From the IMG/VR virus record IMGVR_UViG_2918493637_000007: a stretch of DNA of 64,000 bases, one strand, 5' to 3'. Under the pieces are notes generated by a model. The model was given only the letters and a program-made list of their open reading frames with translations, was not told the DNA's origin and ran no database searches. This DNA comes from a virus. Shown piece after piece: positions 3,984 through 28,011 of this stretch. A program made the translations under genes and the position numbers. Positions within the stretch are counted from its first letter, which is position 1, and every line of letters starts with the position of its first letter.

Positions 3984-4010
3984 TTATAGCGATCACCTGT
4001 TGGGTTTTTC
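3984..4010 (-). promoter_or_regulatory. Phage-specific promoter-like motif upstream of SSB
   Basis: Minus strand GAAAAACCCAAC-AGGTGATCG-CTATAA; same 9-nt spacing as four other copies. Confidence 0.65.
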
Positions 4011-4163
4011 GCTAATTCGCGCATTCTCGAATGGGAGAATACGGGAATGGGTGCCCTCAGAAGGGCCGGTGCCGGGGCGCCGGCAGGGCCGGGCGCGGCT
4101 TCTTGATCCGGGAGCGGATCCAGAACAGGGGTCCGAGGACCAGGAGGGCGACGCCGACGACCA

Positions 4164-4754
4164 TCACTCGGACTCGGCCATCGTGCGGGCGGCCCGGGCG
4201 CCGACGCGCTCAGCGGCCGACTTGGCGTTGTCGGCCAGCTCGCGCTTGGCCGCCATCGACAGCTCGCCCTTCATCTCCTCGCGGGAGGTGGCGCCGGCCT
4301 GCACGAGCATGTCGCGCCGGTGCCGGAAGGCCTCGAGGGTCGTGTTGGCGACCTTCTCGATCTGCTTGGCCTCGTTCAGCGCCCGCTTGAAGGCGACCAC
4401 CTGCGGGTGCCGGGCGATCTTCCGCTCGACGATGCCCTCGGTGATCTTCTCGCCGAGGACGGCCATCGCCTCGCGGATCTCGCGATCCACCTTGGCTTCC
4501 TGGTTCTCGATGAGGATCTTGATGTTGTCGACCTGGCGCGAGGCCTTGGCCGCCAGCACGCCGAAGTGGGCGAACAGGGACGCCTGATCGGCCATCGCGC
4601 TCGACAGGTCGTTGAGCGAGTAGGCGAGCTTCCCCTTGAGGTCCTCCTCGGCCAGGAAGTCCTTCACCTGGACCTTGCGGACCTGGATCTGCTTCGGGGC
4701 AGGGGGCGTCGGCGGCGTTGCCGATGTCTCGTCGGTCTGGGCTTCGTCGCTCAT
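4164..4754 (-). CDS. UvsY-like recombination mediator (helical)
   Basis: DLSSAMADQASLFAHFG...ITEGIVERKIARHP...TLEAFRHRRDML pattern resembles phage UvsY-family proteins; adjacent to SSB and RecA. Confidence 0.55.
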   Translation of the reverse strand: MSDEAQTDETSATPPTPPAPKQIQVRKVQVKDFLAEEDLKGKLAYSLNDLSSAMADQASLFAHFGVLAAKASRQVDNIKILIENQEAKVDREIREAMAVLGEKITEGIVERKIARHPQVVAFKRALNEAKQIEKVANTTLEAFRHRRDMLVQAGATSREEMKGELSMAAKRELADNAKSAAERVGARAARTMAESE

Positions 4755-4757
4755 GGC

Positions 4758-5006
4758 TCAGACCCGCGGCGGGAACGACCAGGTGCCCGGCTGATCCGGG
4801 CCACCCTCGAGCACGCATTCCGGCAGCGGCTCGGGCTTCCGGCCGGGCGCGAACACCGTCAGCGAGCAGATGTCGCCGCCGTCGCCGGCCTCGAACACGC
4901 CGGTGACGATCGCCGCGTAGGGCTGATCCGAGATCGAGACGCGCTCGGCGTCCCTGGGGTGGTAGTGGACGATGCGTCCGACGCTGGGACGCTGGTGTGC
5001 GGGCAT
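4758..5006 (-). CDS. Small conserved-looking phage protein (PSVGRIVHY motif)
   Basis: ATG at 5006 gives an 82-aa MPAHQRPSVGRIVHYHP...PGTWSFPPRV downstream of an operator and promoter. Confidence 0.7.
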   Translation of the reverse strand: MPAHQRPSVGRIVHYHPRDAERVSISDQPYAAIVTGVFEAGDGGDICSLTVFAPGRKPEPLPECVLEGGPDQPGTWSFPPRV

Positions 5007-5044
5007 GGCTGCCTCCGCTGAGTGAGTAAGTGCTGACTGATCTT

Positions 5045-5070
5045 TTATAGCGAGCGCGCGTCGGGTTTTG
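5045..5070 (-). promoter_or_regulatory. Phage-specific promoter-like motif
   Basis: Minus strand CAAAACCCGAC-GCGCGCTCG-CTATAA, followed by the operator at 5024-5039. Confidence 0.7.
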
Positions 5071-5142
5071 CGTGGGTCGCGCTGGCTTCTGGTGTGGGTA
5101 GCTATGGCCATCCACAGCAAGATAAGTCAGCGCTGAATTGGT

Positions 5143-5169
5143 TTGAAAAATCGACGTTTGTGCTATCTT
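5143..5169 (+). promoter_or_regulatory. Sigma70-like promoter for the putative ncRNA
   Basis: TTGAAA (5143-5148) and extended -10 TGcTATCTT (5161-5169); operator at 5124-5139 immediately upstream. Confidence 0.5.
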
Positions 5170-5175
5170 AGGGGG

Positions 5176-5530
5176 TGAGGGACGCAGGTGGCCGCCCGCG
5201 TCCCTCGGTGTTGGTAGCTGGCAGCGCTACTCGTTACATGAGCCCGAGCGTGATGGTCACAGACCACTCACCGCTCGGGTTTCGTGTAACCGTGACCCGC
5301 AGAAGCGGGATCATCAGCACATTGCATCACCTCCTCCCCTGCCTTCTCAAGACGGCGGCGGCACTCGCCGTTAACCCTCGGTCCAAGGGGGTCGCGTAGG
5401 GAGGAGACCCAACGAGGCCAATGTAGCAGGCAACTCCGAGTCTACAAAACCGGCCGAGCGTCTCGTCCCCAACATCCACCGTTTTGCGGGGGTCGGCCGT
5501 CTCTTGTCCCCGGTATCCCCAAGAGCGCCT
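5176..5530 (+). ncRNA. Putative structured non-coding RNA with an anti-Shine-Dalgarno segment
   Basis: No credible ORF; at least six stems; G-U pairs form on the + strand (A-C mismatches on -); ATCACCTCCT at 5326-5335. Confidence 0.6.
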
Positions 5531-5584
5531 ATTGACTGACGCATTCTCGGGGCGCGTCGGCCGGTGTGGGCTTGACAGGCGCGA

Positions 5585-8500
5585 TCAGTCGCTCATGAGG
5601 GCGGCGGCCACCTCGAACACCTCGTTGAGCTTCGCCTGCTTGGAGGCGTCGTGGAAGATCTCGCCCGGGGCGAAGCCGATCACGAGATTGGCGTCGAGGC
5701 CCTTGTGGTAGACGACCTCGCCGGCGACCTCGGACGCCTTGCCCTTGAAGTCGGGGATGAACTGCCGGACCGTGGTCGAGCCGAGCAGCACGATCACCGG
5801 CGGCTTGAGGATCTCGATCTCGCGGGCGAGGTAGGGCCCGTAGGTGGCGATCTCGCTGGCCGAGACCTGCTTGCCGGCCTTGGGCCGCTTGATGAGGGCG
5901 GTCCAGTAGGCGTCGGCCCGCGACAGGTCGTTGGCGTCGAGCGCCTCCTGGACCCACTCGCTGACGCAGTAGGAGCCGCGGTTGTCGTAGCTCATGCGGC
6001 CGGAGGTGTCCTCGCCCTTCGAGGGCGCGTCGAGGATCACCATGAAGCGCATGTTCTTGCCCGTGGTCATCTTCACCGGCATGCCGTCCTCGGCGCAGCC
6101 GTCCGAGTAGTCGGCGAACACCTCCAGGATCTTGATCCGGCTGTCCCGGTCGCGGTGCATCTCGCGGCTGATCGGGACGTGGGCCGTGATGAGCCCCGGG
6201 ATCAGCTCGCGCTGGTCCTTGATCCGGTCCGGGTGGCGTCGAGGTAGCTGGCCTGGCTCGATGTCGGCGAAGGCGCCGACCAGGTCGAGGAGCCCGACGT
6301 GCTTGACGTTGCAGCGCCGCCGCTCGACGCGGGCGGTCAGGTCCTCCTTCGACTTGAACGGGCCGGCCCCGTCGCCCCGCGCCTTCAGGATGGCCTCGGT
6401 GGTCAGCGCCGAAATGCCCTTGATCCGGTTGAACGGCATGCACAGCCGCGTGTCGGTCACGATCTCGAACTGGTTGGTCGAGTGGTTGATGTCGGGCAGA
6501 TCCACCTCGATCCCCATCCGCTCGGCGTCCTTCATCAGGCCCGGCAGCTTGTCCTGGGGCATCAGGGTGAGCGCCGCCGCGAAGAACTCCACCGGGTAGT
6601 GGGTCTTGAGATACATCGCCTGGTAGGAGATCAGCGTGTATTCGACCGAGTGGCTCTTGTTGAAGCCGTAGCCGGCGAAGCCCTCGATCTTGTCGAACAG
6701 CAGACCGGCCCACTCGGGCGTGCAGTCCACGGTCGCGACACAGCCCTCGACGAACTTGCCGCGCTCCTTCTTCATCTCCTCGGGGAGCTTCTTACCCATG
6801 ATCTTGCGGAGCTTGTCGGCCTGCGCGCCTGAGTAGCCGGCGATCACCTGAGAGGCCTTCATGACCTGCTCCTGGTAGACGAACACGCCGTAGGTCGGGC
6901 TGAGCACCGGCTCGAGGAGCGGGTGGTCATAGTCCACGCTCTCGATGCCCTGCTTGCGCTTCCAGTAGCTGTCCATCATGCCCGACTCCATCGGGCCCGG
7001 GCGGTAGAGCGCGGTCGCGGCCGTGATGTCGTCGAAGGTGATGGTGCCGTCCTTGCCCAGCTCCTTGAGCAGGCGCCGCATGCCGCCGCCCTCGAACTGG
7101 AAGATGCCCGTGGAGATCGCGCGGGCGAAGTTGTCGAGCACCTTCGGCTCGTCGAGCGGGATCCGCAGTAGGTCGACCTTCTTGCCGCGCCGCTTGCGGA
7201 TGTAGTCGAGGGTGAGCGCGATCAGGTCCAGGGTGTTGAGGCCCAGGATGTCCATCTTCACCAGGCCCTGGTCCTCGACGATGCGCTTGTCCCAGCACAC
7301 CACCGGCAGATCCGGGACCGGCTCCTCGCCCTCCTTCGGCTTCGAGGGCGCCTTGCGCCGCTCGATGACGGCCCGCTCGACCAGATCGACGCCGCCGACG
7401 ACGACGCCGGCCGCGTGCTGCGAGAGGTTGCGCAGGCAGCCTTCGAGCTTCTTGGCCGTGTCCCAGATCTCGGGGTTGCCGGCCGCGAACGCGCCGATCT
7501 CCGTCACCTCTGCGGCGGCCTCGGCGAGCTTGACCGGCTGGCCGTGCTTCTTCGGCACGAACTTGGAGCAGCGATAGAGCTCCTCGTTGAGGCCGAACAC
7601 GCGGCTCACGTCCCGGATCGCCGAGCTGGCGCCCAGGCGCCCGTAGTTCGAGACGCCGGCCACGCGGGCGGTGCCATACTTGCGGATGAGATACTGGAAC
7701 ACCTCGTGCCGGCGCTCGGACATGAAGTCGAGGTCGGCGTCGGGAAGGTCGATACGCTCGGGGTTGATGAAGCGCTCGAACAGGAGCTCGAAGCGGAGCG
7801 GATCGCAGTCGGTGATCCCCATCAGGTAGGCGACGAGCGAGCCGCCCACGGAGCCGCGGCCGGGGCCGACCAGGATCCCCTGGCTCTTGGCCCACACGAC
7901 CACGTCCTGCACCAGGAGGAAGTAGCCCGAGAAGCTGAGGTTCTTGAGCACGGTCAGCTCGTAGCGCAGCCGCGGCTGGTAGACGTCCTTGAGCTCCTGG
8001 TTCGACGGGCGGTGCCCGAACACCGGGGCGGTGAAGCGCTCGTGCCAGCCCTTGGTGCAGGCCTCGACGACCGCCTTGAACTCGTCGGGCGCCATGATCG
8101 GCAGCGAGGGCGCGGACTTGGCCCAGGCGAAGGTGACCATGTCGACGAGGCGCGCGGTGTTCTTCATGCCCTCGGAGAAGCGCCCCTTGGTCGGCACGCC
8201 CCGGAACTCCTCGAGCCGCTTGGCGGCCGCCTTCACGTCGCGCACCAACTCCTGCAGGGTCTTCGGATGCAGGTCGCGCACCGGGTTGAACCACGCCCAG
8301 GGCTCGGTGAGCTTCACGTTGCGGGTGACGGCGTTCATGATGTCGGCCGCGTCGGCGCTGCCCTCCTCGTAGAGGGCGGGCGCGGCGACCAGCGTCGGCA
8401 GGCCGAGCTCCTCGGCGAGCTGGAGCGCCTTGACGTTCTGGGTGTCCCAGTAGGGCGTGTCGATCGGCACCAGCGTGCAGAACGTATTAGACGCGCTCAG

Positions 8501-8992
8501 AGCGTCGGAAATCTTCGTGAGTATCTGTGACGCTGACTTGTGCGCGACGACGCTGTGCGCGTCGCTCGTCGCGATTGCGACGTCTGCCGCAGTCACGTTC
8601 GCAAGCTCTGCATAGAGATCGTCGAAGGAGAGCTTGGCGTTGTTGTAGAAGCGCTCCTCGGAGTTGGCGAGCGACAGCAGGCGGTAGAGCGCCATCAGCC
8701 CGGCCTGGGAGAGAACATACCAGGTCACGAAGAACTCCGGCGGCGCCTTCTTGTCCTCCTTGGTCTTGCGCCAGGTGACGTCGTCCACGAGCCGGAGCCG
8801 GCAGCCGATGACGGGCTTGATCCCGGCCTTCTGCGCCTTCTGGGTCAGCTCGATCAGACTGGTCGCCGACATGGTGTCCGTCACGCCGACGGCCTTGGCG
8901 CCGGCTCCAACGGCCCGGTCCACGAGGCTCTCGATCGACAAGATGCTCTCGCCGATCGAAAAATTGGTGCGAGCCGCTAGGACCGCGTGCAT
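5585..8992 (-). CDS. dnaE: DNA polymerase III alpha (family C) with degenerate PHP and C-terminal UDG-family-4-like domain
   Basis: ATG at 8992 with GGAG RBS; [49 protein letters not shown]; C-terminal [25 protein letters not shown]. Confidence 0.95.
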
Positions 8993-9471
8993 GGAGATCT
9001 CCGGTTGTTGGCTTGAACTTTTCGGGTGGCCCAGACGCAGTTGCCTGGCTCGTAGGGGCCGTCGTTGTTCTTCCGCTCGATCGTCAGATTGCGCGGGCGC
9101 TCGCCCATGTCGGCGAGGAAATTCTCGAAGGTCTTCCAGTGCTCGCACACGGTGATCCCGCGGGCGCCGTAATCCTTGTAGGACTCGTTGTTCGGGTTCG
9201 TCGTCCGCTGGATCATGTTGGACCAGCAGACGTAGGTGGGTGAGCGCTTGCTGTGCCCGTGCCGGATGGAGCGGGCGCTCGTCGCTTCGTTCTTGGCGCA
9301 GCCGCAGGACGACGTGTGACCGGACTGGAGATCCCGTCCGGCCGCCCTTGCTGAGCCGCCGCAGGTGCAAAGGCACCTCCAAGCGGCGTTGCCACCCATG
9401 ACGCCGTCGCGCGCCTCTACCGTGAGGCGCCCGAAGGTCTGGCCCGTGAGATCGACCAGCCGGCCCATCAT
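8977..9471 (-). CDS. HNH endonuclease (DLTGQxFGRLTV family)
   Basis: [17 protein letters not shown]...WRCLCTCG...TSSCGC...[12 protein letters not shown]...[20 protein letters not shown]. Confidence 0.88.
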
Positions 9472-10004
9472 TCCGTCCTGAGTGTGAGGCGGCCGTTCTG
9501 CTCGATGGCTGCGCCGAGCGCGGTGAGCGCCTGGAAGGCCTGGGTCGCGTGGGCGGCTGCGGTGCCCTCGCTCCATTCGAGTTTGCGCATGAAGGCGGTC
9601 TTGAGCGTCGCCCGGTCGATGCCGGCCTTCATGTGCAGCAGCAGGTGGCAGGTGACGCGCAGGAAGGCTGGGCTCGTCGTGAACGGGTTCTCGCCGCGCG
9701 AGAGGGCGGCCGTCACCGAGATGCCGGCGCGCTCGATGCGCCCGATCAGCTCCTCGACCTTCTTGGGCAGGCCCTCGGTCAAGACGCCGGTCGCGTGCGC
9801 TTCCGTGGGACCCCGCGGGCGGGGAGGGCGCTGCGCGCGCGGCTCCTTGGGCTTGATGCCGAGCTCGGCGCGCCGCCGCGTGAGCTGCTCGGCGCCGACC
9901 TGCGCGCACTCAGCGGCGAACGGGCACGAGATGCACTCGGCCGCTTCCGCGCGATAGGCGAGGGCGAAGCCGAAGCAGCCCGGACGGAGCATCGAAGTCA
10001 GCAC
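9468..10004 (-). CDS. Hypothetical protein with N-terminal Cys cluster
   Basis: PGCFG...[11 protein letters not shown]; co-oriented with overlapping junctions. Confidence 0.65.
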
Positions 10005-10016
10005 TGACTTACTTCC

Positions 10017-10643: not shown

Positions 10644-10647
10644 GGCG

Positions 10648-11874
10648 TTACCCGAAGTAGCGCTGCGCGAGCTGGGAGGCGGCCTCGCGGTCGACCCGGC
10701 TCATGCGGTTCATGAAGCCCTGGCGCAGGCCGGCCGAGTAGTCGGCGCCGCGCATCACGCCGAGCCGGCCCGCGGTGATGAGCTCGCGGGGCGAGATCGT
10801 CATGCCGATCCGGCCGCCCTTGAACGCCTCGCGGATGTCGTTGGCGAACTTCACCAGCTTGGCGGCATCGTCCTTCTTCACGCGCGCCTGGCTGACGATG
10901 ACGGCCGTCTCCACGTCGGGCTCCATGTAGGGAACCTCCTCGACGATGTGCATGCGGGAGTAGTTCGCGGCGTTCTGGATCTGGGTGCCCTGGTAGAGAC
11001 CCGTTTCGTCTCCGCCACCGTTGGTGTTGCCGGTCGCCACGAAGCGGAAGTTCTTGTGCGGGCGGATCACCCGCATGTCGGGCGGCGCGTCCTTGATGAA
11101 CAGCGGCTTGCCCTCGAGGATCGGCTGGTAGACCGACAGGACCGAGGGGAGGGCGAAGTCATACTCGTCGGCGCAGTAGACGTAGCCGTTGAGCATGGCG
11201 ATCGTGAGCGGGCCGGGCTGAAACACGGTCTCGGTGGAGAGCACCGCGATGTCCTCGCCGGTCGCCTGGTTCTTCGTGACGCGCTCGACCGCCTGGACGA
11301 CATACTGCCCGACGATGTGCGCCTCTTCGGTGTTGGCGGTGTGCTGGACCCGCATGAACGGCCGCTTGGTGCGGGCGCAGACTTGCTCGAAGGCGGTGGT
11401 CTTGCCGGTGCCGTGAAAGCCCCAGAAGTAGACGTTCATGCCCATCTCGAGGCCCATGAGCGCCGTCTTCACCAGGTCGAGGTTGAACACGTAGTTCGGG
11501 TCGACGTCCGGCACGAGGGCGAGCGCCTCGGCGTCGTGGCCCTTCATCACCGAGATCAGGATCGGCTCGCCGCGCTTGTTCTTGGTCGCGGGCACGTCGC
11601 CGGTCTCGAACACGGCCGCCAGCGGCATTTTGTCCACGAGCTGTGTGACGGTGCCGTCCTCGGCGGCCTTCTTCTGCTCCACGAGGCGCTCCTTCTGACG
11701 CTTCTCGGCGGCCGGCGACAGCAGCGGCGCGTCGGGGTAGGTGGCGCGGTAGCGCTCCACCGTCCATTCGGGGTGGTGCGTCTTCAGGTGCGCCTGGATG
11801 ACATGGACGCGGGCCCCGTCGAGCAGGCACTCGATCTTGCCGTCGGACAGGGCTGCGGGGGCGGGCGTGTTCAT
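10648..11874 (-). CDS. cobS: CobS-like MoxR AAA+ ATPase with N-terminal Ros/MucR-like zinc finger
   Basis: GFHGTGKTT (Walker A), YCADEYD (Walker B), FRFVATGNTNGGGDETGLYQGT, ISPREL; N-terminal IECLLDG...HLKTHH. Confidence 0.88.
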   Translation of the reverse strand: MNTPAPAALSDGKIECLLDGARVHVIQAHLKTHHPEWTVERYRATYPDAPLLSPAAEKRQKERLVEQKKAAEDGTVTQLVDKMPLAAVFETGDVPATKNKRGEPILISVMKGHDAEALALVPDVDPNYVFNLDLVKTALMGLEMGMNVYFWGFHGTGKTTAFEQVCARTKRPFMRVQHTANTEEAHIVGQYVVQAVERVTKNQATGEDIAVLSTETVFQPGPLTIAMLNGYVYCADEYDFALPSVLSVYQPILEGKPLFIKDAPPDMRVIRPHKNFRFVATGNTNGGGDETGLYQGTQIQNAANYSRMHIVEEVPYMEPDVETAVIVSQARVKKDDAAKLVKFANDIREAFKGGRIGMTISPRELITAGRLGVMRGADYSAGLRQGFMNRMSRVDREAASQLAQRYFG

Positions 11875-14391: not shown

Positions 14392-14427
14392 AAGTTGTCT
14401 CTCCAAGTCAGTAGTGACTTACTACTG

Positions 14428-14450
14428 TATAGACGACGTAAATTGGTTAC
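14428..14450 (-). promoter_or_regulatory. Degenerate copy of the phage promoter motif upstream of cobT
   Basis: Minus strand GTAACCAAT-TTACGTCGT-CTATA (9-nt spacer), followed by the operator at 14405-14420. Confidence 0.5.
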
Positions 14451-14695
14451 GCGAATGGAATGATAGACGCAGATGCGTCCGAGATCATGATGATACAGCG
14501 GCCGTAGACTGGATGAACACCGCTGTGGAGTTCGGTCTGGCCGACGTTGGTGAAATTCTGTTCCCGCAGGAGTGCAACCTGCTCGAGGGCGTCAATCTGA
14601 TCCACTTTGTGGATCACCGGGTTGAACTCCTCGGCCAGGATCTCGATCGCCGGAGGCGTCGGGATGAGGTTCAGGATCTCGTTGGACGTCTTCAT
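14447..14695 (-). CDS. Hypothetical protein
   Basis: 82-aa ORF downstream of the operator at 14721-14736. Confidence 0.55.
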   Translation of the reverse strand: MKTSNEILNLIPTPPAIEILAEEFNPVIHKVDQIDALEQVALLREQNFTNVGQTELHSGVHPVYGRCIIMISDASASIIPFA

Positions 14696-14826
14696 CGCTT
14701 CCGCCTATTCCCAGGGACATGAGTCATTGCTGACTTGCTATACGCGTCAAAAATTGAGCCACCCTTTTGGGCGGCTGGCTGGCATTCCGATGTCGCGCCC
14801 GGACCGGGCGCGGTTGCGTATATGGT

Positions 14827-15327
14827 TTAGAGCGACTTCGGCACTGGGGAGACGCCCCGGCGGTCTTTAACTCGGAACAGGTCTCCGACGGCCTCGAGCT
14901 GCTCCTCGGTCGGATCAACGTCCGCGCCGCCGGTCGCCTGCCGGATCGCGCTCACGACCTTCATCTCCCCGGCCGAGACCAAGTTAGGGAAAATCTTGTC
15001 GATTTCAGCCGCGCTTATCGGCATATCGGGCTGCTGAGCGGCTAGACGGAAGAAGAAGCTCGGGTCGCAGCGTAGCGCCTTGGCCAGCACGAGGGTCTTA
15101 TTCAGCGGCACCTTCGTTTCGCCGCGCTTAAACATGGAAAGAATGTTCGGCTTGTCGTAGCCGGCGGCGAGTGCGATCTCCCGCTGATTTATGCCAAGAT
15201 CACCGAGGCTGTCGATCTGATTTCGCAGATACACAGCCATCGTCGTGTTTTCATACGGGCGCTGAACTGGCTTCGTCGTCAAATTTTTTGTCTCCTGAAC
15301 TGCTATGGTTGCTCGGTTGATCACCAT
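14827..15327 (-). CDS. XRE-family HTH regulator, candidate prophage repressor
   Basis: INQREIALAAGYDKPNILSMFKRGETKVPLNKTLVLAKALRCDP HTH pattern; true start may be ATG at 15240. Confidence 0.8.
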   Translation of the reverse strand: MVINRATIAVQETKNLTTKPVQRPYENTTMAVYLRNQIDSLGDLGINQREIALAAGYDKPNILSMFKRGETKVPLNKTLVLAKALRCDPSFFFRLAAQQPDMPISAAEIDKIFPNLVSAGEMKVVSAIRQATGGADVDPTEEQLEAVGDLFRVKDRRGVSPVPKSL

Positions 15328-15613
15328 TGTATGATCGCTTCGGTTTCGATTTTCTCGATGCTCTTGCGATCTCGATATAGCAGCTCGAGCTCGGGTTGCG
15401 ATGCAGGTATCGCGCCGGAGTCTACAAGCCTGAATTTCACGGATAAGTCAACACTGACTTAGGTTGTGCCTAATAAAATTTCTGTGTCATGCCATCTGTA
15501 GCCCTAGCCTGACGCTTCGGGTATGCGACTCGTAGCGCCCGGTGGTGTTAAGGTGGCCTAGCGAAGGCCCCGAATCAAATTGCCACCTGGGGTTGTTAGA
15601 ATTTTACTGAAGG

Positions 15614-20271: not shown

Positions 20272-20302
20272 AAAAAGGGGCGACCCCAGGAGAGGCCGCC
20301 CC
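20272..20302 (-). terminator. Rho-independent terminator after the ligase-HNH operon
   Basis: Minus strand GGGGCGGCC-8nt-GGTCGCCCC-TTTTT (one G-U pair). Confidence 0.7.
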
Positions 20303-20388
20303 GCACACACACAGAAAGGAAACCCGAACACGTCGGTCCCACCCGACGGTTCTACGGGTCTCCTAACGGTAAGTCAACGCTGACTTGC

Positions 20389-20964
20389 CTATTTCTCGAG
20401 GAGGCGGTTGCCCTTCCTCCTGTTCGCGTCGCGGGTCTTCACCTGGAGGTTCCAGGGGACGTGGAGCCCGCAGAGCAGCTCGTGCTGGAGCGGCTCGATG
20501 TGGTCGACTTCGTGCGGGATCCCCGTCACGTCGGTCATGCGCCGGGCCTCGGCGTAGACGGCCTCGATCGCCTTGCGGTCGGCCCAGGGCGGGGTGGCCT
20601 GCTTGATGGCGTCCCAGCGCCAGATGGACTTGGCGGCGTAGTAGCCCGGGTTGTTGCGGTAGGTCTGCTGAGCGTAGCGCTTGCGCCGCTCCGGGTCAGC
20701 CTTCTGCACCGCGATGGCCTGGGCGATCCGCTCCTCGCGGTTCTCCCGGTAGCGCGCCTTGCACCCGGCCTTGTGTGCCTCGGGATCAGCCTGGTGCCGA
20801 GCCTTCGCCTTCGCGATCCTGGCCGCCCTGTTCTTCTGGTAGTTGGTCCGGTTTTTCTCGCGCACACAGGATGCGCACCAGTGCCCGAAGCCGTCCTTGG
20901 TGGACTTGTCCGAGTTGAACTCGGACAATGGCTTCGAGCACTGGCACTTCGAGCAGTGTTTCAT
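20389..20964 (-). CDS. HNH endonuclease
   Basis: N-terminal CSKC...CASC, C-terminal HEVDHIEPL...GLHVPWNLQVKTRDANRRKGN. Confidence 0.88.
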   Translation of the reverse strand: MKHCSKCQCSKPLSEFNSDKSTKDGFGHWCASCVREKNRTNYQKNRAARIAKAKARHQADPEAHKAGCKARYRENREERIAQAIAVQKADPERRKRYAQQTYRNNPGYYAAKSIWRWDAIKQATPPWADRKAIEAVYAEARRMTDVTGIPHEVDHIEPLQHELLCGLHVPWNLQVKTRDANRRKGNRLLEK

Positions 20965-20995
20965 CCTGTCTTCGTAGGTCAGTGCTGACTTACCG

Positions 20996-22354
20996 TCAAG
21001 CGGCGACCTTCAGAGCCGAGTCCTTATCGTCCCGGAACCTTACGAAGCGGGGATGACGAAGCGATCCATCCGGTGTCACCTCGTGATACTCCACCTCGAT
21101 CAGCCGCCCGATGTAGCTGTCCGGGTCCTTGTCGATCGTCTCCAGCAGCTCGTGCGAGAAACCGCCGCCCACGCTGACGCTGACCCCGGCCCGGTCGACC
21201 ACGAAGCCCGCGAACTTCCCTTCCAGGCGGGTGCCGGCCTTCCCGGTGTAGTGGCCGGTGATCCGGAGATCCTCCGTTTCCTGCCCCTTGATCTTCATCC
21301 AGAGGTGGCCCTTCTTCTTCACGTAGTGGCCGTCCCAGGGCTTCACCATCGCACCCTCAAGGCCGTTGGCCCGGTGCTCGGCGTAGATGGCCTGGATCTC
21401 CTCGTGGGAGTTCGCCTCGCGTAGGTCTGTCACCTGGATCGGGGCGCCCTCGGGCGCGCAGCGCACCACGAACTCCAGCACCTTGCGCCGGATCTTGAGC
21501 GGGACCTTCCACTCGATCTGGCCGGTGTCGCGCATGATGGCGTAGGGCACGATGTCGAACACGTTCAGGATCGTATCGGTCGCCTCCTCGTCCTTGCGGC
21601 GCAGATCGCCCGAGGTCGTCTTGTAGGAGCCGGACACCGCCTCGCCGTCGATCGCCGCCGACGGACCAGCGTCGCCGCCCAGGACGTCCCAGATGAAGCG
21701 GCGCACCTTGTCGGTCATCCCCGGGCAGCTCTCGGCGTTCTGGACCTTGGCCCGGGCGTTCTCGACCATCTGGACCAGGTAGGGGCCGGCCCAGTCGAGC
21801 TGCGGGAAGTGGTTGCCCACGCGCGAGAACGCCTTCGAGACCCCGGCCGAGACCAGGCTCATGCCCCGGAAGCCGTCGAGCTTGGGCTCGATCGGGACCG
21901 GGAACGTCTTGATGCGCTTCTCCTCGTAGGCCTTGGACAGCATCAGGTCGAAGGTCGGCACCGTATTCGGCAAGACCAGGTTGATGGTCTTCTCGGAGAT
22001 GCCGCAGCGCAGGTCCTTGGCCAGGATCCGGCGCAGGACCTCGCAGGAGGCCGGCTCCAGGTCGACGAGCATGCGCTCGACCGCGACCTTGGCGGCGTTG
22101 CCGGTCAGCTCGCGCTTGGAAAGCTGGTGCAGCATCACCCAGGGCTGCGGGCTGGTGTGGTCGAAGCTGAGCCGGCCGGCGCCCTTCACCTGGGGCGGCG
22201 TGATGCCGAAGGTGATGAACGGGTCGTAGGCGAGCTGCACGACGCGCTGGACGGTCGGGTCCTCGATCTTGGACCGGAGCAGGTCCTCCTTCGCGTTGCG
22301 CGAGGTGGTGGCGCCGATCTCCTGGAGGAGGCGGTAGACGTCGATCGAGTTCAC
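20996..22354 (-). CDS. ATP-dependent DNA ligase (T4 gp30-like)
   Basis: EPKLDGFR (motif I), IDGEAV, FDIVP, EGAMVK, WMKIK, OB-fold GSGF-like GGGFS, SLRHPRF. Confidence 0.93.
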   Translation of the reverse strand: MNSIDVYRLLQEIGATTSRNAKEDLLRSKIEDPTVQRVVQLAYDPFITFGITPPQVKGAGRLSFDHTSPQPWVMLHQLSKRELTGNAAKVAVERMLVDLEPASCEVLRRILAKDLRCGISEKTINLVLPNTVPTFDLMLSKAYEEKRIKTFPVPIEPKLDGFRGMSLVSAGVSKAFSRVGNHFPQLDWAGPYLVQMVENARAKVQNAESCPGMTDKVRRFIWDVLGGDAGPSAAIDGEAVSGSYKTTSGDLRRKDEEATDTILNVFDIVPYAIMRDTGQIEWKVPLKIRRKVLEFVVRCAPEGAPIQVTDLREANSHEEIQAIYAEHRANGLEGAMVKPWDGHYVKKKGHLWMKIKGQETEDLRITGHYTGKAGTRLEGKFAGFVVDRAGVSVSVGGGFSHELLETIDKDPDSYIGRLIEVEYHEVTPDGSLRHPRFVRFRDDKDSALKVAA

Positions 22355-23055
22355 GCGGCCTGGTCCTTCTGTGCTGCGGCCCGGGCGCGGGCCATCTCGA
22401 GGAGCGACATGCCCTTGCCGGCCGGAGCCGGTGCGGGCTTCGGGGTGGGCTTGGGCTGCGCAGGGGCGGCCGCAGGCGGCTTCGGTGCCGGTGCGACAGC
22501 CTTGGGCGCGGGCGCGGGAGCTGGCGCCTCGCTGGCCCTGGCGACGGCGCGGGTCACGGCAGCCGACAGGTCGCCCGACAGCGCGGCCGCCTTCAGCCCG
22601 TCGTCAGCGGCCGGCGCCGACTCCTCGCGCTTCACCGCGGCGAGCTTCACGCCCGCGGTCTTCTTGGCCGCCCGGGGCTTGCCGGCACTGGCCGCCTCGT
22701 TCGCCGCCCGGATCGCATCGGCTTCGGCGCCCTCGACCGCGTAGCGGTTGACCGCGTCGTCGCGCACCAGGATCGGGCGCACCGCCTCGAGGATCTCACC
22801 CTTGAGCGGGAGCACCTTCGGCTCGGCCGAGAAGTAGGGATCCTCGCCCGTGCGGATGATCGCCCGGTTGATCCAGTAGACCGGGCACTTCGAGGACATC
22901 AGGCAGGCCTGGCAGCCGCGCCGCTCGTCGGGCTTGCGGCCGCGAGCCACCTGCTGCTCGAGCTCCAGGCAGTCGGCGAGCCGCGTCTCGGCCCCGAAGA
23001 TCGGGCAGACGATCAGGGCCTCGTTCTTCGGCGAGTAGGTCTTGATGAGCGTCAT
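22351..23055 (-). CDS. Hypothetical protein (Cys-rich N-terminus, Ala/Pro-rich tail)
   Basis: CPIFG...C...CQAC...KCP; operonic overlap with the ligase. Confidence 0.65.
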   Translation of the reverse strand: MTLIKTYSPKNEALIVCPIFGAETRLADCLELEQQVARGRKPDERRGCQACLMSSKCPVYWINRAIIRTGEDPYFSAEPKVLPLKGEILEAVRPILVRDDAVNRYAVEGAEADAIRAANEAASAGKPRAAKKTAGVKLAAVKREESAPAADDGLKAAALSGDLSAAVTRAVARASEAPAPAPAPKAVAPAPKPPAAAPAQPKPTPKPAPAPAGKGMSLLEMARARAAAQKDQAA

Positions 23056-23577
23056 CTACCAGGTCCCCCAGTTCTCGTTGTGGGCGACCTCGTCGGCGAC
23101 GGACGGCCCGGCCGGCTCCACGAAGTCGGTGAACTTGTGCCGGGGCTGGTAGCCCTTGCGGACGATCTTCCCGTCGCGGTCGAACTCGGGTTGCGGATCG
23201 GGAGTGCGCACGCCGGTCGTGTCGGCGCCGGGCGCGATGTGCTCGAGGTTGTCCGGGCCGAGCTTGGACAGGTAGAGGATGCCGAGCTTCTTGCGGAAAT
23301 CGGCCTCGTCATCGCACTGCACGATGGTGTCCCGGGCCGGGTCGTGCTCGTAGCCGTTCCGCTTCTTGTCGCGGTCCTTGCTCTCAAACTCAGCGACGGC
23401 CGCGTCAGAGTGGTGGAACGCATCCACCCGCATCTGGCCTTCGGCGTTCTTCTTGCCCCAGCGCTGGATGACGATCGCGCGGCCCTCGCCGTTCACGATC
23501 AGCACTTGGTGATATTCCTTGGTGCCCTGTCGATGCAGCATCGACTTCTTGCGCAGGGCGATCGGGTAGACCGGCAT
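23056..23577 (-). CDS. WGR-domain protein
   Basis: KEYHQVLI...IQRWGKKNAEGQ...F...AAVAEFESKDRDKKRNGYE fits the WGR pattern. Confidence 0.7.
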   Translation of the reverse strand: MPVYPIALRKKSMLHRQGTKEYHQVLIVNGEGRAIVIQRWGKKNAEGQMRVDAFHHSDAAVAEFESKDRDKKRNGYEHDPARDTIVQCDDEADFRKKLGILYLSKLGPDNLEHIAPGADTTGVRTPDPQPEFDRDGKIVRKGYQPRHKFTDFVEPAGPSVADEVAHNENWGTW

Positions 23578-23619
23578 GGCTCCTCTCTGCTGTGCGTGTG
23601 TCTGTGTCTCGCTCGCTGA

Positions 23620-23645
23620 CTATAGCGAGCGTGCGTCGGTGTTTC
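23620..23645 (-). promoter_or_regulatory. Phage-specific promoter-like motif upstream of the WGR-ligase operon
   Basis: Minus strand GAAACACCGAC-GCACGCTCG-CTATAG, adjacent to the operator at 23646-23661. Confidence 0.7.
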
Positions 23646-23667
23646 GTGTCACCACTGACTTATTGCG

Positions 23668-24801
23668 TCAGGCAGTGAGCGGCGCCTTCGCCCGGCGCAG
23701 CGCCGTGTAGGGGTTGCGCAGGCGCCATTCGACGGCCAGCCGCGGGCTGTATTCCTGGGCCTGCCAGAGCGCCTTGCGCACGACCTCGGGCTTGGCCTCG
23801 TTCGGGTCCTGGTCGAGCGGCAGCAGGGCGATGCGGGCCTTCAGCCCGATCTTGCGGATCGACTCGGCCGCCTTCACCGCGGCGGCGAGCGCGTCGGGCG
23901 TCCCGTCCCAGCAGATGATGACCTCCTGGAGCCCGTAGCCCTTGAGCACGAGGAGCTGACCGAGCTGGTCGCGGCCCTCGAGATCGCCGGTCGACAGGTG
24001 CTTGCCGAAGGAGCCGACCGGGACGATGTCGCGCAGCTCGCTCTCACCGTCGATCGCCGCCTTGAGCGAGAACACGTCGAAGGCGCCCTCCCCCATCGCG
24101 ATCCGGCGCGCCCGCACGGCGTTGTGGCCGTTGTAGAGGAAGCGACCGGTGCCGGGCAGCGCGGGCGGGAACAGGTATTTCGCGTCCTGGTCGCCGATGA
24201 TGTCCCGGCCCTGGAAGGTCACGAGCTTGCCGTCGAGGTCGTAGACCGGGATCAGCAGCCGCTGCTCCCACTTCTGGCCGCCCCGGCTGCCGTCGTCCTT
24301 CGTCCAGTTCCACCAGCCGCTGTCGCAGTAGCGCAGCCGGAAGTAGGCCGCGAGCTCCACGCCGATCCCGCGGCTCTCGAGGTATTTCAGGTTCTGGCCG
24401 TCAGCCGTCGGCAGCGCGAAGCTGTCGGGGAGCTTGATCTCGTCGGGCACCTCGACGGCGGCCGTGATCGTGCGCTTCGGGCGCCAGCCCTGCTCCACGC
24501 AGGCCGCCTTGACGTGCTTGAGGGTCTCGCCCCACTTCTTCGCGTCCTTGTCGCCGTGCAGGAAGGCGTTGACGAAGGACAGCTTGTTGAAGCGGGTCTC
24601 GCACACGAAGCAGTTGCCGATCCCGGACTCGGCGTTGAGGTAGACCCGGTAGCGCCCGTCCCGGCAGTGGTCCTGCGGGCAGTCCTTCACGTTGATCTGC
24701 ATGCCCGACGAGCCGCGCGTGGGCCCCTTGTAGGCCAGGCCCTCGCGGTCGAACCACTGCTCCAGGTCGAGCTCCTCGGACAGCTCCTGAAAATCGCTCA
24801 C
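23668..24801 (-). CDS. dnaG: DNA primase (Zn-binding + TOPRIM)
   Basis: GTG at 24801 overlapping the upstream TGA; CPQDHC...GNCFVC; LLIPVYDLDGKLVTFQGR; MGEGAFD; CWDGTPDA. Confidence 0.85.
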   Translation of the reverse strand: MSDFQELSEELDLEQWFDREGLAYKGPTRGSSGMQINVKDCPQDHCRDGRYRVYLNAESGIGNCFVCETRFNKLSFVNAFLHGDKDAKKWGETLKHVKAACVEQGWRPKRTITAAVEVPDEIKLPDSFALPTADGQNLKYLESRGIGVELAAYFRLRYCDSGWWNWTKDDGSRGGQKWEQRLLIPVYDLDGKLVTFQGRDIIGDQDAKYLFPPALPGTGRFLYNGHNAVRARRIAMGEGAFDVFSLKAAIDGESELRDIVPVGSFGKHLSTGDLEGRDQLGQLLVLKGYGLQEVIICWDGTPDALAAAVKAAESIRKIGLKARIALLPLDQDPNEAKPEVVRKALWQAQEYSPRLAVEWRLRNPYTALRRAKAPLTA

Positions 24802-25019
24802 GGGCGCCTCCAGCCGAGGGACTCGAGGGTCTCGCGCACGGTCCGGGCCTGCTCGAGGAAGCGCCGGCCCGTGACCTTCGGATCCTCGAGCACGCAGTCC
24901 CACTGGAAGTTGGCGTTGCGCGCCAGCACGCGCGCCGCGCCGATGTCCTCGTCGGTGAACCCGTCGAGCTGCTGCTCCAGCGGGTAGCCCATGCAGTCCT
25001 TGCCCGAGCGGTCGATCAT
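24798..25019 (-). CDS. Hypothetical protein
   Basis: 73-aa ORF with overlapping start/stop junctions. Confidence 0.6.
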   Translation of the reverse strand: MIDRSGKDCMGYPLEQQLDGFTDEDIGAARVLARNANFQWDCVLEDPKVTGRRFLEQARTVRETLESLGWRRP

Positions 25020-25210
25020 GCGGTGCCTCGGATCTCGCCGCGCGTGGCCGCCTGGATCGCGTGCGCGTCGCTGCCGGAGGCCAGGATCCAGGCCCGGATG
25101 AAGGAGCTGGCCCAGATGTCGGCCGGGTAGCGGACCTCGACCTCGAGCACCTGGATCGGCGGCAGCCAGAACCGGCGCCGCTCGACGAACCTGAAACGAC
25201 CCGTCCTCAT
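25016..25210 (-). CDS. Hypothetical protein
   Basis: ATG at 25210 (MRTGRFRFVERRRFW...), GGAGG RBS, ATGA-type overlaps on both sides. Confidence 0.55.
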   Translation of the reverse strand: MRTGRFRFVERRRFWLPPIQVLEVEVRYPADIWASSFIRAWILASGSDAHAIQAATRGEIRGTA

Positions 25211-25521
25211 GCCGCCCTCCTCTCGTCCTCGTCGTTGAGCTCGATCGCCACGCAGCGCGGCTCCATCACCACCTCGACGGCGTAGCGGCCGGCGATCCGG
25301 GCCGGCGCCAGGATCTCGACCACGTAGTCGAAGGCGTCCCAGCTCTCGGGATCGTTCTCGACGTTGGCCTCGATCAGCATCTCGGCGACGTCGGACCCGC
25401 GCACGAACTCGGGCAGATCCACCTCGGCCTGGCTCTCGTAGGGCTCGGGCGGCTGGTAGCGCCGGTCCATCTTGATCTTCTGGCGCGGGCATTCGCGCCA
25501 GAGCACGGTGATCTTGGCCAT
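25207..25521 (-). CDS. Hypothetical protein
   Basis: 104-aa ORF overlapping the dnaB stop. Confidence 0.6.
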   Translation of the reverse strand: MAKITVLWRECPRQKIKMDRRYQPPEPYESQAEVDLPEFVRGSDVAEMLIEANVENDPESWDAFDYVVEILAPARIAGRYAVEVVMEPRCVAIELNDEDERRAA

Positions 25522-26879
25522 CAGCGGCTCACCCCCAGGACCTTCGAGAGGAACTTCATGCGGGCCCGGTCCTGCTGGATGCGGATCACGACGCCCTCTT
25601 CGCCGTTGCGGTGCGCGACGAACTCGATGCGGGCTTCCGAGACCTGCTTCTCCTCGGACGTCGCCGAGATCGCGATCACCACGTCGGCGATGCGGATCTT
25701 GTTGAAGTCCTCGGCCACGTCGGTCGCCTTGACGCTGGTCGCCTTGGCGCCGTCGCGGTTCGTCTGCGTGGCCGTGAGCACCGCGGCGTTCTGCTCGAAG
25801 GCGATCGCGCGCAGATCGACCCAGATCGACTTGCTCTCCTGGATCGGATTGTCGTTGCGGTGCTCCGCGGCCATGATGTCCGCGTAGTCGACGATGATGA
25901 GGTCGAAGATGACCCCGCGCGCCCGGTAGCGCTCGATCAGCCGCCGGAGCTGGCTGCCCTTCATCGTCCCCGTCGGGAACTCGTGGATGTAGAACTGGCC
26001 CGACTTCTTGGCCGCGAGCTCGACGGCCTCCTGCACCTTGAACGGGTTGTCGTTAAGGCCCTTCATCAGGGTGTCCGACACGTTCGCGTCGAGACGATCC
26101 GCGATGATGCGCGAGGCGACCTCGAGGGAGACGTAGAGGACGTTGAAGCCGGCGAAGGCCGCATACTTGCCGAAGTCGGCCAAGCCCATCGACTTGCCGC
26201 CCTTGGCCGGCGCCATCAGCGCCGAGAGCTCCTTGCGGCCCCAGCCCTTGTGGTAGAGGAGGTCGTCGATCTCCTTGATGCCGGTGGTGATGCCGTCGGG
26301 CTTGTAGAGCCCGGCCGCGATCATCTTGCGCCGCTCGGTGCGCTCCTGGATGTGGTCGAAGTAGTTGATGCCGCTGGCGTCGTCGGCCACGCCCACGAGC
26401 TGCGCCGCCGAGATGCGCTGGGCGATCTTGGCGAAGTCGCCCCGGTCGAGGTCCCCGACCGAGGCCAGGATCGCCTCCTCCAGCGCCCGGTGCTTGGCGA
26501 AGCTCGCGACCTCGTCGACCACGAAATCGCGGTCCGAGATGTCGGCGGTGAGGAGTTCCTTCACCTTCTCCTTGACATCGGCGACCATGTCCTTGCGGAT
26601 GGTCTTGTTCGCGATGCCATTGGCGATGAGCCTGACAAGTGTGACCTTGTCGGGCAGCATCTTATACTTGGCGAAGTATTCCCCGGTCAGCTTGACCAGG
26701 ACGGCTTCGGACTCGTTGACGAAGTAGAAGGGCTGGATCAGCCCGTCCGTGCGCTGCGCGAAGACCGGGTCGCGCACCTGGAGCGCGGCGACCTTGCTCT
26801 GAAACTCGGCGTCGAACTGGAAGGCGCCCGGGTTCGCGGGGACCGCGTCGTCTTCCTCGACCGTGACGTACGCGGTCAT
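25521..26879 (-). CDS. dnaB: Replicative DNA helicase (DnaB-like)
   Basis: ITTGIKEIDDL, APAKGGKS (Walker A), LYVSLEV, LIIVDYADI, LTATQTNR, AEDFNKIRIAD. Confidence 0.92.
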   Translation of the reverse strand: MTAYVTVEEDDAVPANPGAFQFDAEFQSKVAALQVRDPVFAQRTDGLIQPFYFVNESEAVLVKLTGEYFAKYKMLPDKVTLVRLIANGIANKTIRKDMVADVKEKVKELLTADISDRDFVVDEVASFAKHRALEEAILASVGDLDRGDFAKIAQRISAAQLVGVADDASGINYFDHIQERTERRKMIAAGLYKPDGITTGIKEIDDLLYHKGWGRKELSALMAPAKGGKSMGLADFGKYAAFAGFNVLYVSLEVASRIIADRLDANVSDTLMKGLNDNPFKVQEAVELAAKKSGQFYIHEFPTGTMKGSQLRRLIERYRARGVIFDLIIVDYADIMAAEHRNDNPIQESKSIWVDLRAIAFEQNAAVLTATQTNRDGAKATSVKATDVAEDFNKIRIADVVIAISATSEEKQVSEARIEFVAHRNGEEGVVIRIQQDRARMKFLSKVLGVSR

Positions 26880-26882
26880 GGA

Positions 26883-27143
26883 TCAGGCCTCGAGGATTTC
26901 GTAGCCCGTCAGGTTGCCCTTAAAGTAAGTCATCGCTGACTGATCTCCGCGGGCGACCTTGATGGTGAACTGGTCGGCGGCGACGAGCCGCCCGGTCCGG
27001 GTGGTCGCGCCGAAATGCACGGTGATCTGCCGGCCGATCGCCGCCTTCAGGTCGTCCTGGTGGTTCCAGGTGCGCGGCTTCATCGGCTGCCGAGGCGCGC
27101 TCGGACCACGACGCTCGATCACGGGGCGGGTCTGGGGCTTCAT
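26883..27143 (-). CDS. Hfq/Sm-fold-like small protein
   Basis: QDDLKAAIGRQITVHF...TGRLVAADQFTIKV...SAMTYFKGNL aligns by eye with the Hfq Sm1 (G.I..FDQF.I) and Sm2 (MVYKHAI) motifs. Confidence 0.6.
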   Translation of the reverse strand: MKPQTRPVIERRGPSAPRQPMKPRTWNHQDDLKAAIGRQITVHFGATTRTGRLVAADQFTIKVARGDQSAMTYFKGNLTGYEILEA

Positions 27144-27182
27144 CTCGCGTTCTCTCGCTCGTGTTGTGTTGCGTCGCGTCGT

Positions 27183-27208
27183 CTATAGCGAGCGCAGGTC
27201 GGGGTTTC
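27183..27208 (-). promoter_or_regulatory. Phage-specific promoter-like motif upstream of the Hfq-like/dnaB/primase operon
   Basis: Minus strand GAAACCCCGAC-CTGCGCTCG-CTATAG. Confidence 0.7.
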
Positions 27209-27931
27209 TCAGCGGACGTCGTCGATCCGCGACATCACCACATCGCCCCAGCGCGCCCGGGCCTTCTCCTCCGGGAGCACCTGCTCGTCGTAGATCAGGC
27301 CCTTGAGGGCGTGGACGATGTTGGAGCGCTTCGACACCTGGGCGAGCAGCCACTCGTGGTGCGCGTCCTGGATCGGCGAGGCCTGGTAGCGCTCGTTCTT
27401 GAAGCGCTCGTCCTTGGCCACGTAGAGGATGCCGCTCTGCCGGTCGGTCCAGGTGTCGGACACGGCCGTGAGCAGGTCGAAGTTGTAGAGGTGCGTCGGC
27501 CGCGGCAGGTATTCCTTGCGGCACTTGCGCAGGGACCAGTGCATGGCGATGCCGATGTAGAGGTCGTAGGGCATGCACAGCCCGTCGGCCATCTGGCGCG
27601 CCTTCCACAGTCCGGCCCGGTCGGTGTTGCGCTTGGCCAGGTCGAACGGATCCTCGGCCTTGATCCCCTTCACGTAGTCGGCCTTGGCCCGGTCGAAGGT
27701 CGAGGCATACATCTGCCGGTAGACCCGGCGGTAGGCGTCCGTGAACAGGTAGGTCGCGTGGACCGGGTGCATGAAGCGGTAGTCGAACCACTTCGAGGCC
27801 ATGAGCCAGCGCTCGGGCTCGACCCACTCGTCGGGCAGCGCGTGCATGATGTCGTGGCAGGCCTCGAGGGGGAGGTCCGTCCCGAAGACGTGTCTCTCCC
27901 CCTCCCCTGCCGTGTCCTGTCCCGGTGTCAT
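27209..27931 (-). CDS. Hypothetical phage replication-region protein
   Basis: 240-aa ORF with GC3-rich coding bias, between phoH and dnaB. Confidence 0.75.
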   Translation of the reverse strand: MTPGQDTAGEGERHVFGTDLPLEACHDIMHALPDEWVEPERWLMASKWFDYRFMHPVHATYLFTDAYRRVYRQMYASTFDRAKADYVKGIKAEDPFDLAKRNTDRAGLWKARQMADGLCMPYDLYIGIAMHWSLRKCRKEYLPRPTHLYNFDLLTAVSDTWTDRQSGILYVAKDERFKNERYQASPIQDAHHEWLLAQVSKRSNIVHALKGLIYDEQVLPEEKARARWGDVVMSRIDDVR

Positions 27932-27985
27932 CGTCGACCTTCGCGTGAGCTGCCCGAGGCCGGGCGCGTTGCTGTGCTGCTCACG

Positions 27986-28011
27986 CTATAGTCGCGCAGC
28001 GTCGGGTCTTC
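27986..28011 (-). promoter_or_regulatory. Phage-specific promoter-like motif
   Basis: Minus strand GAAGACCCGAC-GCTGCGCGA-CTATAG. Confidence 0.65.

Follow-up and report, generated by a model that had tools for sequence, protein, structure and literature searches.

A conserved bipartite promoter-like element heads non-structural operons in a family of phage-plasmids

Promoter classes specific to a phage are known from several systems, including the middle and late promoters of T4, the promoters of SPO1 and phiEco32, and the late promoters of P1. Activator logic is represented among them by the T4 middle promoters, with MotA and AsiA, and by the P1 late promoters, with Lpa. No transcription programme has been described for the family comprising RHEph10, V1VFA-S, B1VFA and uncultured or plasmid-borne relatives from Methylobacterium, Methylorubrum and Rhizobium, and the papers that we found to mention these phages include no analysis of promoters or of a sigma factor. 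Here, we examined a 64,000-nucleotide stretch of IMG/VR virus record IMGVR_UViG_2918493637_000007 (the window, that is, the whole stretch analysed), in which a first-pass annotation had pointed to a motif, CCRAC-N9-CTATA, as a non-canonical promoter class in front of replication operons. The motif is the window's form of a bipartite element composed of an A-rich run followed by CCCGAC (CCC being the family core), 8-9 nucleotides (nt) and (C)GCTATA(A/G/T). The five sites at which it occurs very probably represent a conserved promoter class specific to this phage-plasmid family: their position, orientation and conservation, the -10-like half and the missing -35 all sustain the promoter assignment, and the two readers proposed in the first-pass annotation, a phage sigma factor or a phage activator, are the best candidates. 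From the sequences compared, the case for a well-conserved regulatory element of unusual architecture in an unstudied phage-plasmid family appears solid.

An exact search of the window for CCRAC-N9-CTATA recovered the five previously annotated copies, all on the minus strand (3985-4003, 5046-5064, 23621-23639, 27184-27202 and 27987-28005), compared with a mean of 0.02 and a maximum of 1 match in dinucleotide shuffles. A weight matrix built from these sites scored them at 28-44 bits, the next best score in the 64 kb being 14.8. Each copy occupies a short intergenic gap, and the downstream start codons have a ribosome-binding site. Across the family, the motif invariably lies on the coding strand in such gaps, 29-91 nt before the starts of non-structural lytic operons, including those for the gp32-like single-stranded DNA-binding protein (SSB), ligase, helicase-primase, DnaE/sigma, an SbcCD-like pair and others. 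The absence of copies before structural genes held up, with no match of at least 10 bits between 28 and 64 kb of the window. The proposed restriction to replication operons was too narrow; replication operons are indeed headed by the motif, but in relatives it also precedes genes for recombination (SbcCD-like), nucleotide metabolism, NAD salvage and RNA ligase, as well as many small genes of unknown function.

Table 1. Motif copies, the operator core and candidate regulatory proteins in the window. Distances run from the last A of CTATA to the start codon; aa, amino acids; HTH, helix-turn-helix.
Feature	Coordinates	Strand	Description
Motif copy 1	3984..4008	-	AAAAACCCAAC-N9-CTATAA, 91 nt upstream of the gp32-like SSB gene (2964-3893)
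Motif copy 2	5045..5069	-	CAAAACCCGAC-N9-CTATAA, 39 nt upstream of the ATG at 5006
Motif copy 3	23620..23644	-	43 nt upstream of the WGR-domain gene (23056-23577)
Motif copy 4	27183..27207	-	40 nt upstream of the 86-aa gene (26883-27143)
Motif copy 5	27986..28010	-	Weakest copy, GACTATAG; 55 nt upstream of the 240-aa gene 27209-27931 (phrog_2500, unknown function)
Variant copy	15375..15399	-	GCAACCCGAG-N9-CTATAT, 48 nt upstream of the 166-aa Cro/CI-type HTH gene (14827-15327)
Doubtful degenerate copy	14427..14451	-	AACCAAT-N9-CTATAC, 36 nt upstream of the CobT-like ATG (14391)
Operator core example	14405..14420		AAGTCA-N4-TGACTT
Sigma-like protein, 208 aa	10017..10643	-	sigma70 region 2, disordered linker, conserved C-terminal helical domain; candidate motif reader
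178-aa protein	9468..10004	-	Directly after the sigma gene in all relatives; candidate anti-sigma or co-factor

The window is a piece of a phage-plasmid of about 117 kb from a Methylobacterium/Methylorubrum-type host, and RHEph10 and V1VFA-S are its distant relatives. Replicon C3 (116,758 bp) of genome G001 (6.7 Mb) is 90-96% identical across the whole window, and Methylorubrum extorquens and Methylobacterium supply the nearest named homologues of the window's sigma-like protein. Among phage records, nucleotide similarity was limited to the Rhizobium phages RHEph10, V1VFA-S, B1VFA and their relatives (115-122 kb), which show 76-79% similarity over DnaE and little elsewhere; V1VFA-S and B1VFA were announced as phage-plasmid-like, with repC and parAB (PMC12509600). 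The window has a GC content of 67.6% and carries nearly all of its genes on the minus strand. Encoded at 1-28 kb are the SSB, a 5'-3' exonuclease, DnaE fused to a uracil-DNA glycosylase-like domain, the small sigma-like protein, a CobS-like AAA ATPase, a CobT-like VWA protein, an ATP-dependent DNA ligase, a DnaB-like helicase, a primase and PhoH. The remaining large minus-strand open reading frames (ORFs), at 28-64 kb, are syntenic with tail-fibre and tail-assembly genes in V1VFA-S and on that basis are taken to be a structural block.

We compared 20-kb loci around the sigma gene from M. extorquens (L019), assemblies (L020-L022) and IMG/VR contigs (L026-L034), among which the identity of the sigma-like protein ranged from 71% down to 34% and GC content from 50% to 67%. 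As the first-pass annotation had suggested, related phage-plasmids were searched for the motif, and the element is present in C3, in V1VFA-S and at orthologous gaps in all of these loci, namely those before the SSB gene, before the gene that follows dnaE and before the opening gene of the CobT/sigma/DnaE operon. The ortholog of copy 1 before the SSB gene is kept in C3, L019, L020, L022, V1VFA-S, L026 and L029-L033. Copy 2, the top scorer (40-44 bits), is followed by a small ORF and then by a 196-aa gene (4164-4754), and its ortholog is kept in C3 at 113642 and in L019 at 14927; between the window and L019 this site cannot be aligned upstream of the A-rich run, and conservation spans the box, the operator and everything between them. 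Copy 3 heads an operon encoding, in order, the WGR-domain protein, a 234-aa protein, the ATP-dependent DNA ligase (20996-22354) and an endonuclease VII-like protein (20389-20964); in L020 its ortholog, at 431, lies between the primase gene upstream and the WGR gene downstream. The operon of copy 4 comprises the 86-aa protein, the DnaB-like helicase (25521-26879) and then the primase (23668-24903), and its C3 ortholog, altered by one change to CTGAC, still scores 28.6 bits. Copy 5 adjoins the PhoH gene on that gene's downstream side and is identical in C3 at 90111.

At the scale of whole replicons, the exact pattern occurs eight times in the forward and never in the reverse orientation in G001, with seven occurrences on C3 and one on the chromosome. 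A matrix scan of C3 at a threshold of 10 bits returned 17 forward (coding-strand) versus 2 reverse matches, and ten shuffles of C3 gave 0-4 matches with a maximum of 16.3 bits. The forward matches are confined to 3.6-32 kb and 90-115 kb, none reaching 10 bits in the C3 structural block (53-89 kb), and two strong copies beyond the window precede the SbcD/SbcC-like pair and small unknown genes, respectively. In V1VFA-S (59% GC), GCTATAA has 18 coding-strand occurrences against 6 on the opposite strand; all 18 coding-strand occurrences are intergenic in a genome whose intergenic share is 9.7% (P ~1e-14 for at least 16 of 18). They are located at 2-5 kb and 66-115 kb, with none in the structural module at 35-65 kb; no match of at least 10 bits lies at 5-66 kb, which extends the absence before structural genes to this phage. 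Start codons follow the V1VFA-S motif at 29-76 nt, with one exception at 153 nt. Furthermore, TCC(C) appears at one fixed distance in 17 of the 18 GCTATAA sites, and because the V1VFA-S sites were chosen solely by the GCTATA word, this conservation constitutes independent evidence for the upstream box. Between 6 and 23 kb, V1VFA-S also harbours a sister variant in which GCTAAAAC / GCTAAAACT replaces GCTATAA and the upstream context (CACCTGCCGCA..CC) is unchanged; the gaps concerned (6570-6679, 11092-11608, 13391-13623, 20438-21679 and 22604-22897) precede small unknown genes and also hold runs of tAGCTA-type short repeats.

To describe the anatomy of the element, positions were counted with the C of CTATA as 0. 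The 12 sites of the Methylobacterium-type group read aAAAcCCGAc, 8 nt and GCTATA, with A at 7-10 of the 12 sites at each of four consecutive positions in the A-rich run 5' of CCRAC, and the 17 sites of V1VFA-S read tGC-nn-TCC(c), about 10 nt and CGCTATAA. All 29 sites share a C at -14, which in most is flanked by further Cs at -15 and -13, and the common core continues with (C)GCTATA(A/T/G). In its family-wide form, the element is a CCC box located about 12 bases before GCTATAA. A G precedes CTATA at 10 of 12 Methylobacterium-type and 17 of 17 V1VFA-S sites, partly an effect of selection, as the sites were picked by CTATA; CGC stands just 5' of TATAA at 16-17 of the 17 V1VFA-S sites. We infer that TATA(A/G)N is the -10 hexamer, at -12 to -7, a placement that would put the CCC core at about -28 to -26 and the whole box at about -32 to -23. 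Given that start codons lie as near as 29 nt, only a -10 role for this half leaves room for a ribosome-binding site.

Alphaproteobacterial RpoD promoters share this half of the motif. The RpoD consensus of Caulobacter is TTGaCgS / GCtANAWC (PMC8144410) and that of S. meliloti is CTTGAC-N17-CTATAT (PMC2873474); GCTATA(A/T/G)N equals the -10 consensus, with copy 1 (GCTATAAC) fitting GCtANAWC at 8 of 8 positions. In contrast, the motif has no TTGAC at 16-18 bp, and its CCC box lies about 8 bp nearer the -10. A scan with the sigma70 -35/-10 consensus gave no match at any motif site, whereby a canonical sigma70 promoter at these sites was rejected, and column counts in the Methylobacterium group showed no TTG at -35 to -33; the spacing is thus unlike that of sigma70, as first proposed, with no sigma70 -35 at 16-18 bp at any site. 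TTGAC-N17-CTATA itself occurs five times on the host replicons of G001, versus none in the control, and never on C3. We also rejected CCGACGC as a Caulobacter-type -35 (TTGaCgS): it stands 6 nt from GCTATAAN, and V1VFA-S retains only (T)CCC. One distinctly unlikely account of these features is that the sites are plain host RpoD promoters that dispense with a -35 by virtue of a near-consensus extended -10 (CGCTATAA), the CCC box binding some other regulator or being neutral. The match of the -10 half to the host consensus would fit this account, as would the near-invariant CGC before TATAA in V1VFA-S, which resembles an extended -10; however, the distance of the CC/CCC is fixed even where the sigma-like protein is only 34% identical and the flanks are otherwise unalignable, and the full pattern is nearly absent from the host chromosome, with one copy in 6.6 Mb.

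Most motif sites are accompanied by a palindrome, RTAAGTCA-N4-TGACTTAY (AAGTAAGCACTTACTT in V1VFA-S), of which strict copies number 19 in the window and 31 in C3. In V1VFA-S this putative operator begins 1-12 nt past CTATA at 9 of 17 sites and at 33 nt at a tenth; in C3 it closely follows CTATA at most motif sites, and copy 2 of the window has a degenerate half-palindrome about 10-24 nt past CTATA. An operator located 1-12 nt past CTATA would cover the expected start point. As read from this arrangement, motif and predicted operator together form a classical promoter with an overlapping operator. The arrangement also bears on the highly improbable alternative that the sites are not promoters in this sense, being instead oriented sites for replication or packaging proteins, RNA-processing signals or promoters of a T7-type single-subunit RNA polymerase. 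CTATAG does resemble the end of T7/SP6 promoters; nevertheless, many copies carry CTATAA or CTATAT, and no match to the single-subunit RNA polymerase family (PF00940) was detected in G001, where the control was equally silent. The large window ORFs examined were those of DnaE, the CobT-like protein and a 772-aa protein without a significant match; the largest two (1964 and 1537 aa), which were left out, correspond by position to V1VFA-S tail genes. Non-promoter roles are further opposed by the strictly coding-strand placement of the motif in gaps before ribosome-binding sites and by the operator that follows it.

A subset of operators has a different setting. Good flanking -35/-10 hexamers were found at 4 of 31 operators in C3 and 3 of 38 in V1VFA-S, and all seven point in the gene direction (4 versus 0 in C3, three of them in the structural block; 3 versus 0 in V1VFA-S). 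These operators lie at 58700, 62439, 72679 and 113567 in C3, the first three corresponding to about 58.9, 55.2 and 44.95 kb of the window, and at 35171, 37208 and 40999 in V1VFA-S; they sit exactly in the 17-bp spacer, as in TGGACG-17-TATAAT and TTGCAA-17-TACAAT. These sites probably act as ordinary sigma70 promoters for structural operons, the operator occupying the spacer, and as most fall in the structural block, late genes may need no special sigma factor. The notion that all operator palindromes are hidden sigma70 promoters was rejected on these proportions, which are suggestive for a few late promoters.

With no TTGAC at -35 and a box about 8 bp too close for region 4, a phage-encoded specificity factor would be needed, and the sigma-like protein is the leading candidate, to which we give close to, if not quite, an even chance of reading the motif. 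It matches Pfam Sigma70_r2 (E=7e-7), and a 13-sequence profile searched against solved structures was led by region 2 of SigA and RpoS (6e-6 to 2e-5), with ECF (extracytoplasmic function) sigmas at only 0.39; such a SigA/RpoS-like region 2 fits a TATAAT-like -10. Alignment mapping indicated that the core-binding pattern of region 2.2 and the equivalents of F427 and Y430 are kept. An AlphaFold2 model (mean pLDDT, the predicted local distance difference test score, 79.5) comprises a three-helix N-terminal domain (9-83) joined to a five-helix C-terminal domain (114-207) by a disordered linker (85-109), the C-terminal domain being well conserved within the family. All relatives retain the sigma-like protein, whose family is restricted to this phage lineage. 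Within its operon the sigma gene is preceded by motif copies, and lineages differ both in the flanks of the box and in the putative C-terminal recognition helix. The pairing of one orphan sigma with one orphan conserved promoter class suggests that the two belong together.

Under this reading, transcription would start 6-8 nt past the TATA(A/G)N hexamer, region 2 of the phage sigma would read the -10 half and its conserved C-terminal domain would read the CCC box. A repressor bound to the operator across the start point could keep the operons silent in the plasmid-prophage state, and the location of the sigma gene inside a motif-driven operon would provide positive autoregulation, as for ECF sigmas. 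The more specific proposition that a lineage-specific sigma-like protein with a sigma70 region 2 and no region 4 reads a bipartite promoter through a new C-terminal DNA-binding domain, possibly with its 178-aa neighbour, we regard as unlikely; if true, a CCC box about 8 bp nearer the -10 than any sigma70-family -35 would amount to a new geometry of promoter recognition by bacterial RNA polymerase.

Several observations weigh against the phage sigma as reader. Region 4 was not detected in the C-terminal domain by Pfam, structure profiles or hhalign: hits to solved structures were unrelated proteins at chance level (E 0.13 or worse), and comparison with 17 host region-4 segments gave an hhalign probability of 1.8%. 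By alignment mapping, W433/W434 of sigma70 correspond to (L/R)G in the phage protein, and Q437 and T440 to N. Phage sigmas encoded among replication genes are classically late-gene factors, as is T4 gp55. A search of sequencing runs returned from four runs scattered 151-nt contigs and one 11.3-kb contig, without starts or ends, and the matches in RNA runs, being contigs or small shares only, give no transcription starts. Lastly, the -10 half is exactly of the host RpoD type (GCtANAWC, CTATAT), which means that a host sigma could read the motif.

This last point underlies a reading that we hold to be somewhat unlikely, in which host RpoD reads GCTATAW and the CCC box near -28 is bound, in lieu of a -35 contact, by a phage activator, perhaps aided by a second factor remodelling sigma region 4; the targets of the phage sigma would in that case be other genes, such as late ones. 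Besides the RpoD-type -10 half, the geometry favours it, as a box centred at about -28 and separated from the -10 hexamer by about 10-11 bp resembles the T4 MotA box. So do the lack of a recognisable region 4 in the phage sigma and the placement of the sigma gene in an operon driven by the motif, comparable to that of T4 gene 55 among the pre-late genes. Candidate DNA-binding proteins are moreover conserved nearby, namely the 178-aa Cys-cluster protein, the 166-aa HTH protein and, weakly, the CobS-like protein with its Ros/MucR-like N-terminus. On the other hand, no activator was identified: homologues of MotA (PF09114) and AsiA (PF09010) were not found in G001, including C3, and the control genomes were equally silent. 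In addition, the analysis turned up no second orphan promoter motif that the phage sigma might read, and a few late-region operators carry host-type -35/-10 flanks.

The phage sigma is accompanied by neighbours that may bear on either mechanism. In the 178-aa protein, an N-terminal Cys cluster (C-x16-C-x2-C-x5-C) is joined by a basic linker to a helical C-terminal domain; the protein has no Pfam match, belongs to phrog_3616 (unknown function) and matched only viral hypothetical clusters in Atlas. The 166-aa protein, encoded on the minus strand, shows a Cro/CI-type HTH by eye, with a Pfam E value of 0.16 and matches to PHROG transcriptional-regulator families at 7e-5. Its gene is the first in the sigma-containing operon, an operator palindrome (15445-15460) lies upstream of its promoter, and the product is a candidate Cro-like protein or repressor. 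The CobS-like AAA ATPase (10648-11874, minus strand; L021 8589-10001) has a weak N-terminal match to a Ros/MucR zinc finger (E=5e-4, below the Pfam cut-off), and the N-terminal piece of the CobT-like protein of L021 (5706-6791) has a faint match to Sigma70_r4; the CobS/CobT pair, always encoded before the sigma gene, may carry DNA-binding add-ons.

Degenerate copies were scored with a leave-out matrix built from strong sites only. A one-mismatch search of the window added two minus-strand intergenic sites, at 14428 and 15376. The latter, a AACCCGAG-N9-CTATAT variant at 15376-15394 that had escaped the first-pass annotation, scores 6.5 bits, and its orthologous position is kept in at least 8 relatives, among them L019 (5231), L021 (4687), L026 (1138), L030 (4929), L031 (5063), L032 (4932) and V1VFA-S (75278); it heads the operon for the HTH protein, an 82-aa protein, the CobT-like and CobS-like proteins, sigma, the 178-aa protein and DnaE. 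Two degenerate copies had been listed in the first-pass annotation. The copy at 14428 is doubtful: the site (14428-14446) has one mismatch to the pattern and scores -6.3 bits, and a perfect operator palindrome directly follows it. The other, near 14737-14760, reaches only -8.5 bits, lacks a properly spaced CC box and was rejected as a motif copy.

Two side observations concern the SSB leader and the distribution of related elements. The leader of the SSB gene (about 90 nt; window 3894-3984, minus strand) contains short inverted repeats, such as aatagcgaaatcgctaa, that are kept in kind across relatives (gatagctaattagcta in V1VFA-S, at 86043; also L020 15772, L029 17496, L032 15775 and L033 6411). 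By analogy with the operator on T4 gene 32 mRNA, these repeats may be an autoregulatory operator of SSB. The 11.3-kb contig came from freshwater metatranscriptome run X2 and is about 90% identical to window 22000-29000; whether it originates from RNA or carried-over DNA, it indicates that related elements are present in freshwater samples.

The motif provides a map of about 15-18 operon heads per genome, suggests a circuit in which a repressor operator overlies the start point and a phage factor regulates its own synthesis, and presents a promoter architecture outside the known sigma70-family spacing. Should the phage sigma prove to be the reader, the pair would be a compact orthogonal sigma/promoter system for high-GC alphaproteobacteria; should an activator be the reader, it would be a MotA-like system outside the T4 group.

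Among described systems, the T4 middle promoters likewise combine a host-like -10 with a phage box near -28/-30 in place of the -35 and serve DNA-metabolism genes. With the box at about -32 to -23 and TATAAN at -12 to -7 of a predicted start point, the motif shares the MotA-type geometry only; the box sequence is unrelated and the phage-plasmid encodes its own sigma-like protein. ECF (group 4) regulons, with their autoregulated sigma/anti-sigma operon, are comparable in that here, too, a small two-domain sigma is encoded in an operon carrying the promoter it putatively targets, with the gene for a small conserved protein next in line. In contrast to them, the phage region 2 is nearer to group 1/2 sigmas and region 4 was not detected; the motif, AAAnCCCGAC-N8/9-GCTATA, lacks the -35 AAC and -10 CGT of ECF promoters, and with about 12 bp from the AAAC run to CGCTATA its box-to-(-10) distance is 3-5 bp shorter than the 16-17-bp ECF spacer. 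The minimal sigmas T4 gp55/TATAAATA and phiEco32 gp36 are similar in being small, in having a recognisable region 2 only and in their strong extended -10-like element, but here a position-fixed upstream box is conserved and the targets are replication rather than late genes. Finally, the P1 C1 operators and the stoperators of mycobacteriophage L5 are likewise repressor sites scattered in number over a genome; in the phage-plasmid, one operator is present in about 30 copies, many of them over predicted start points of these promoters. The operator predicted here differs from those of P1 and L5 in being a perfect palindrome of another sequence.

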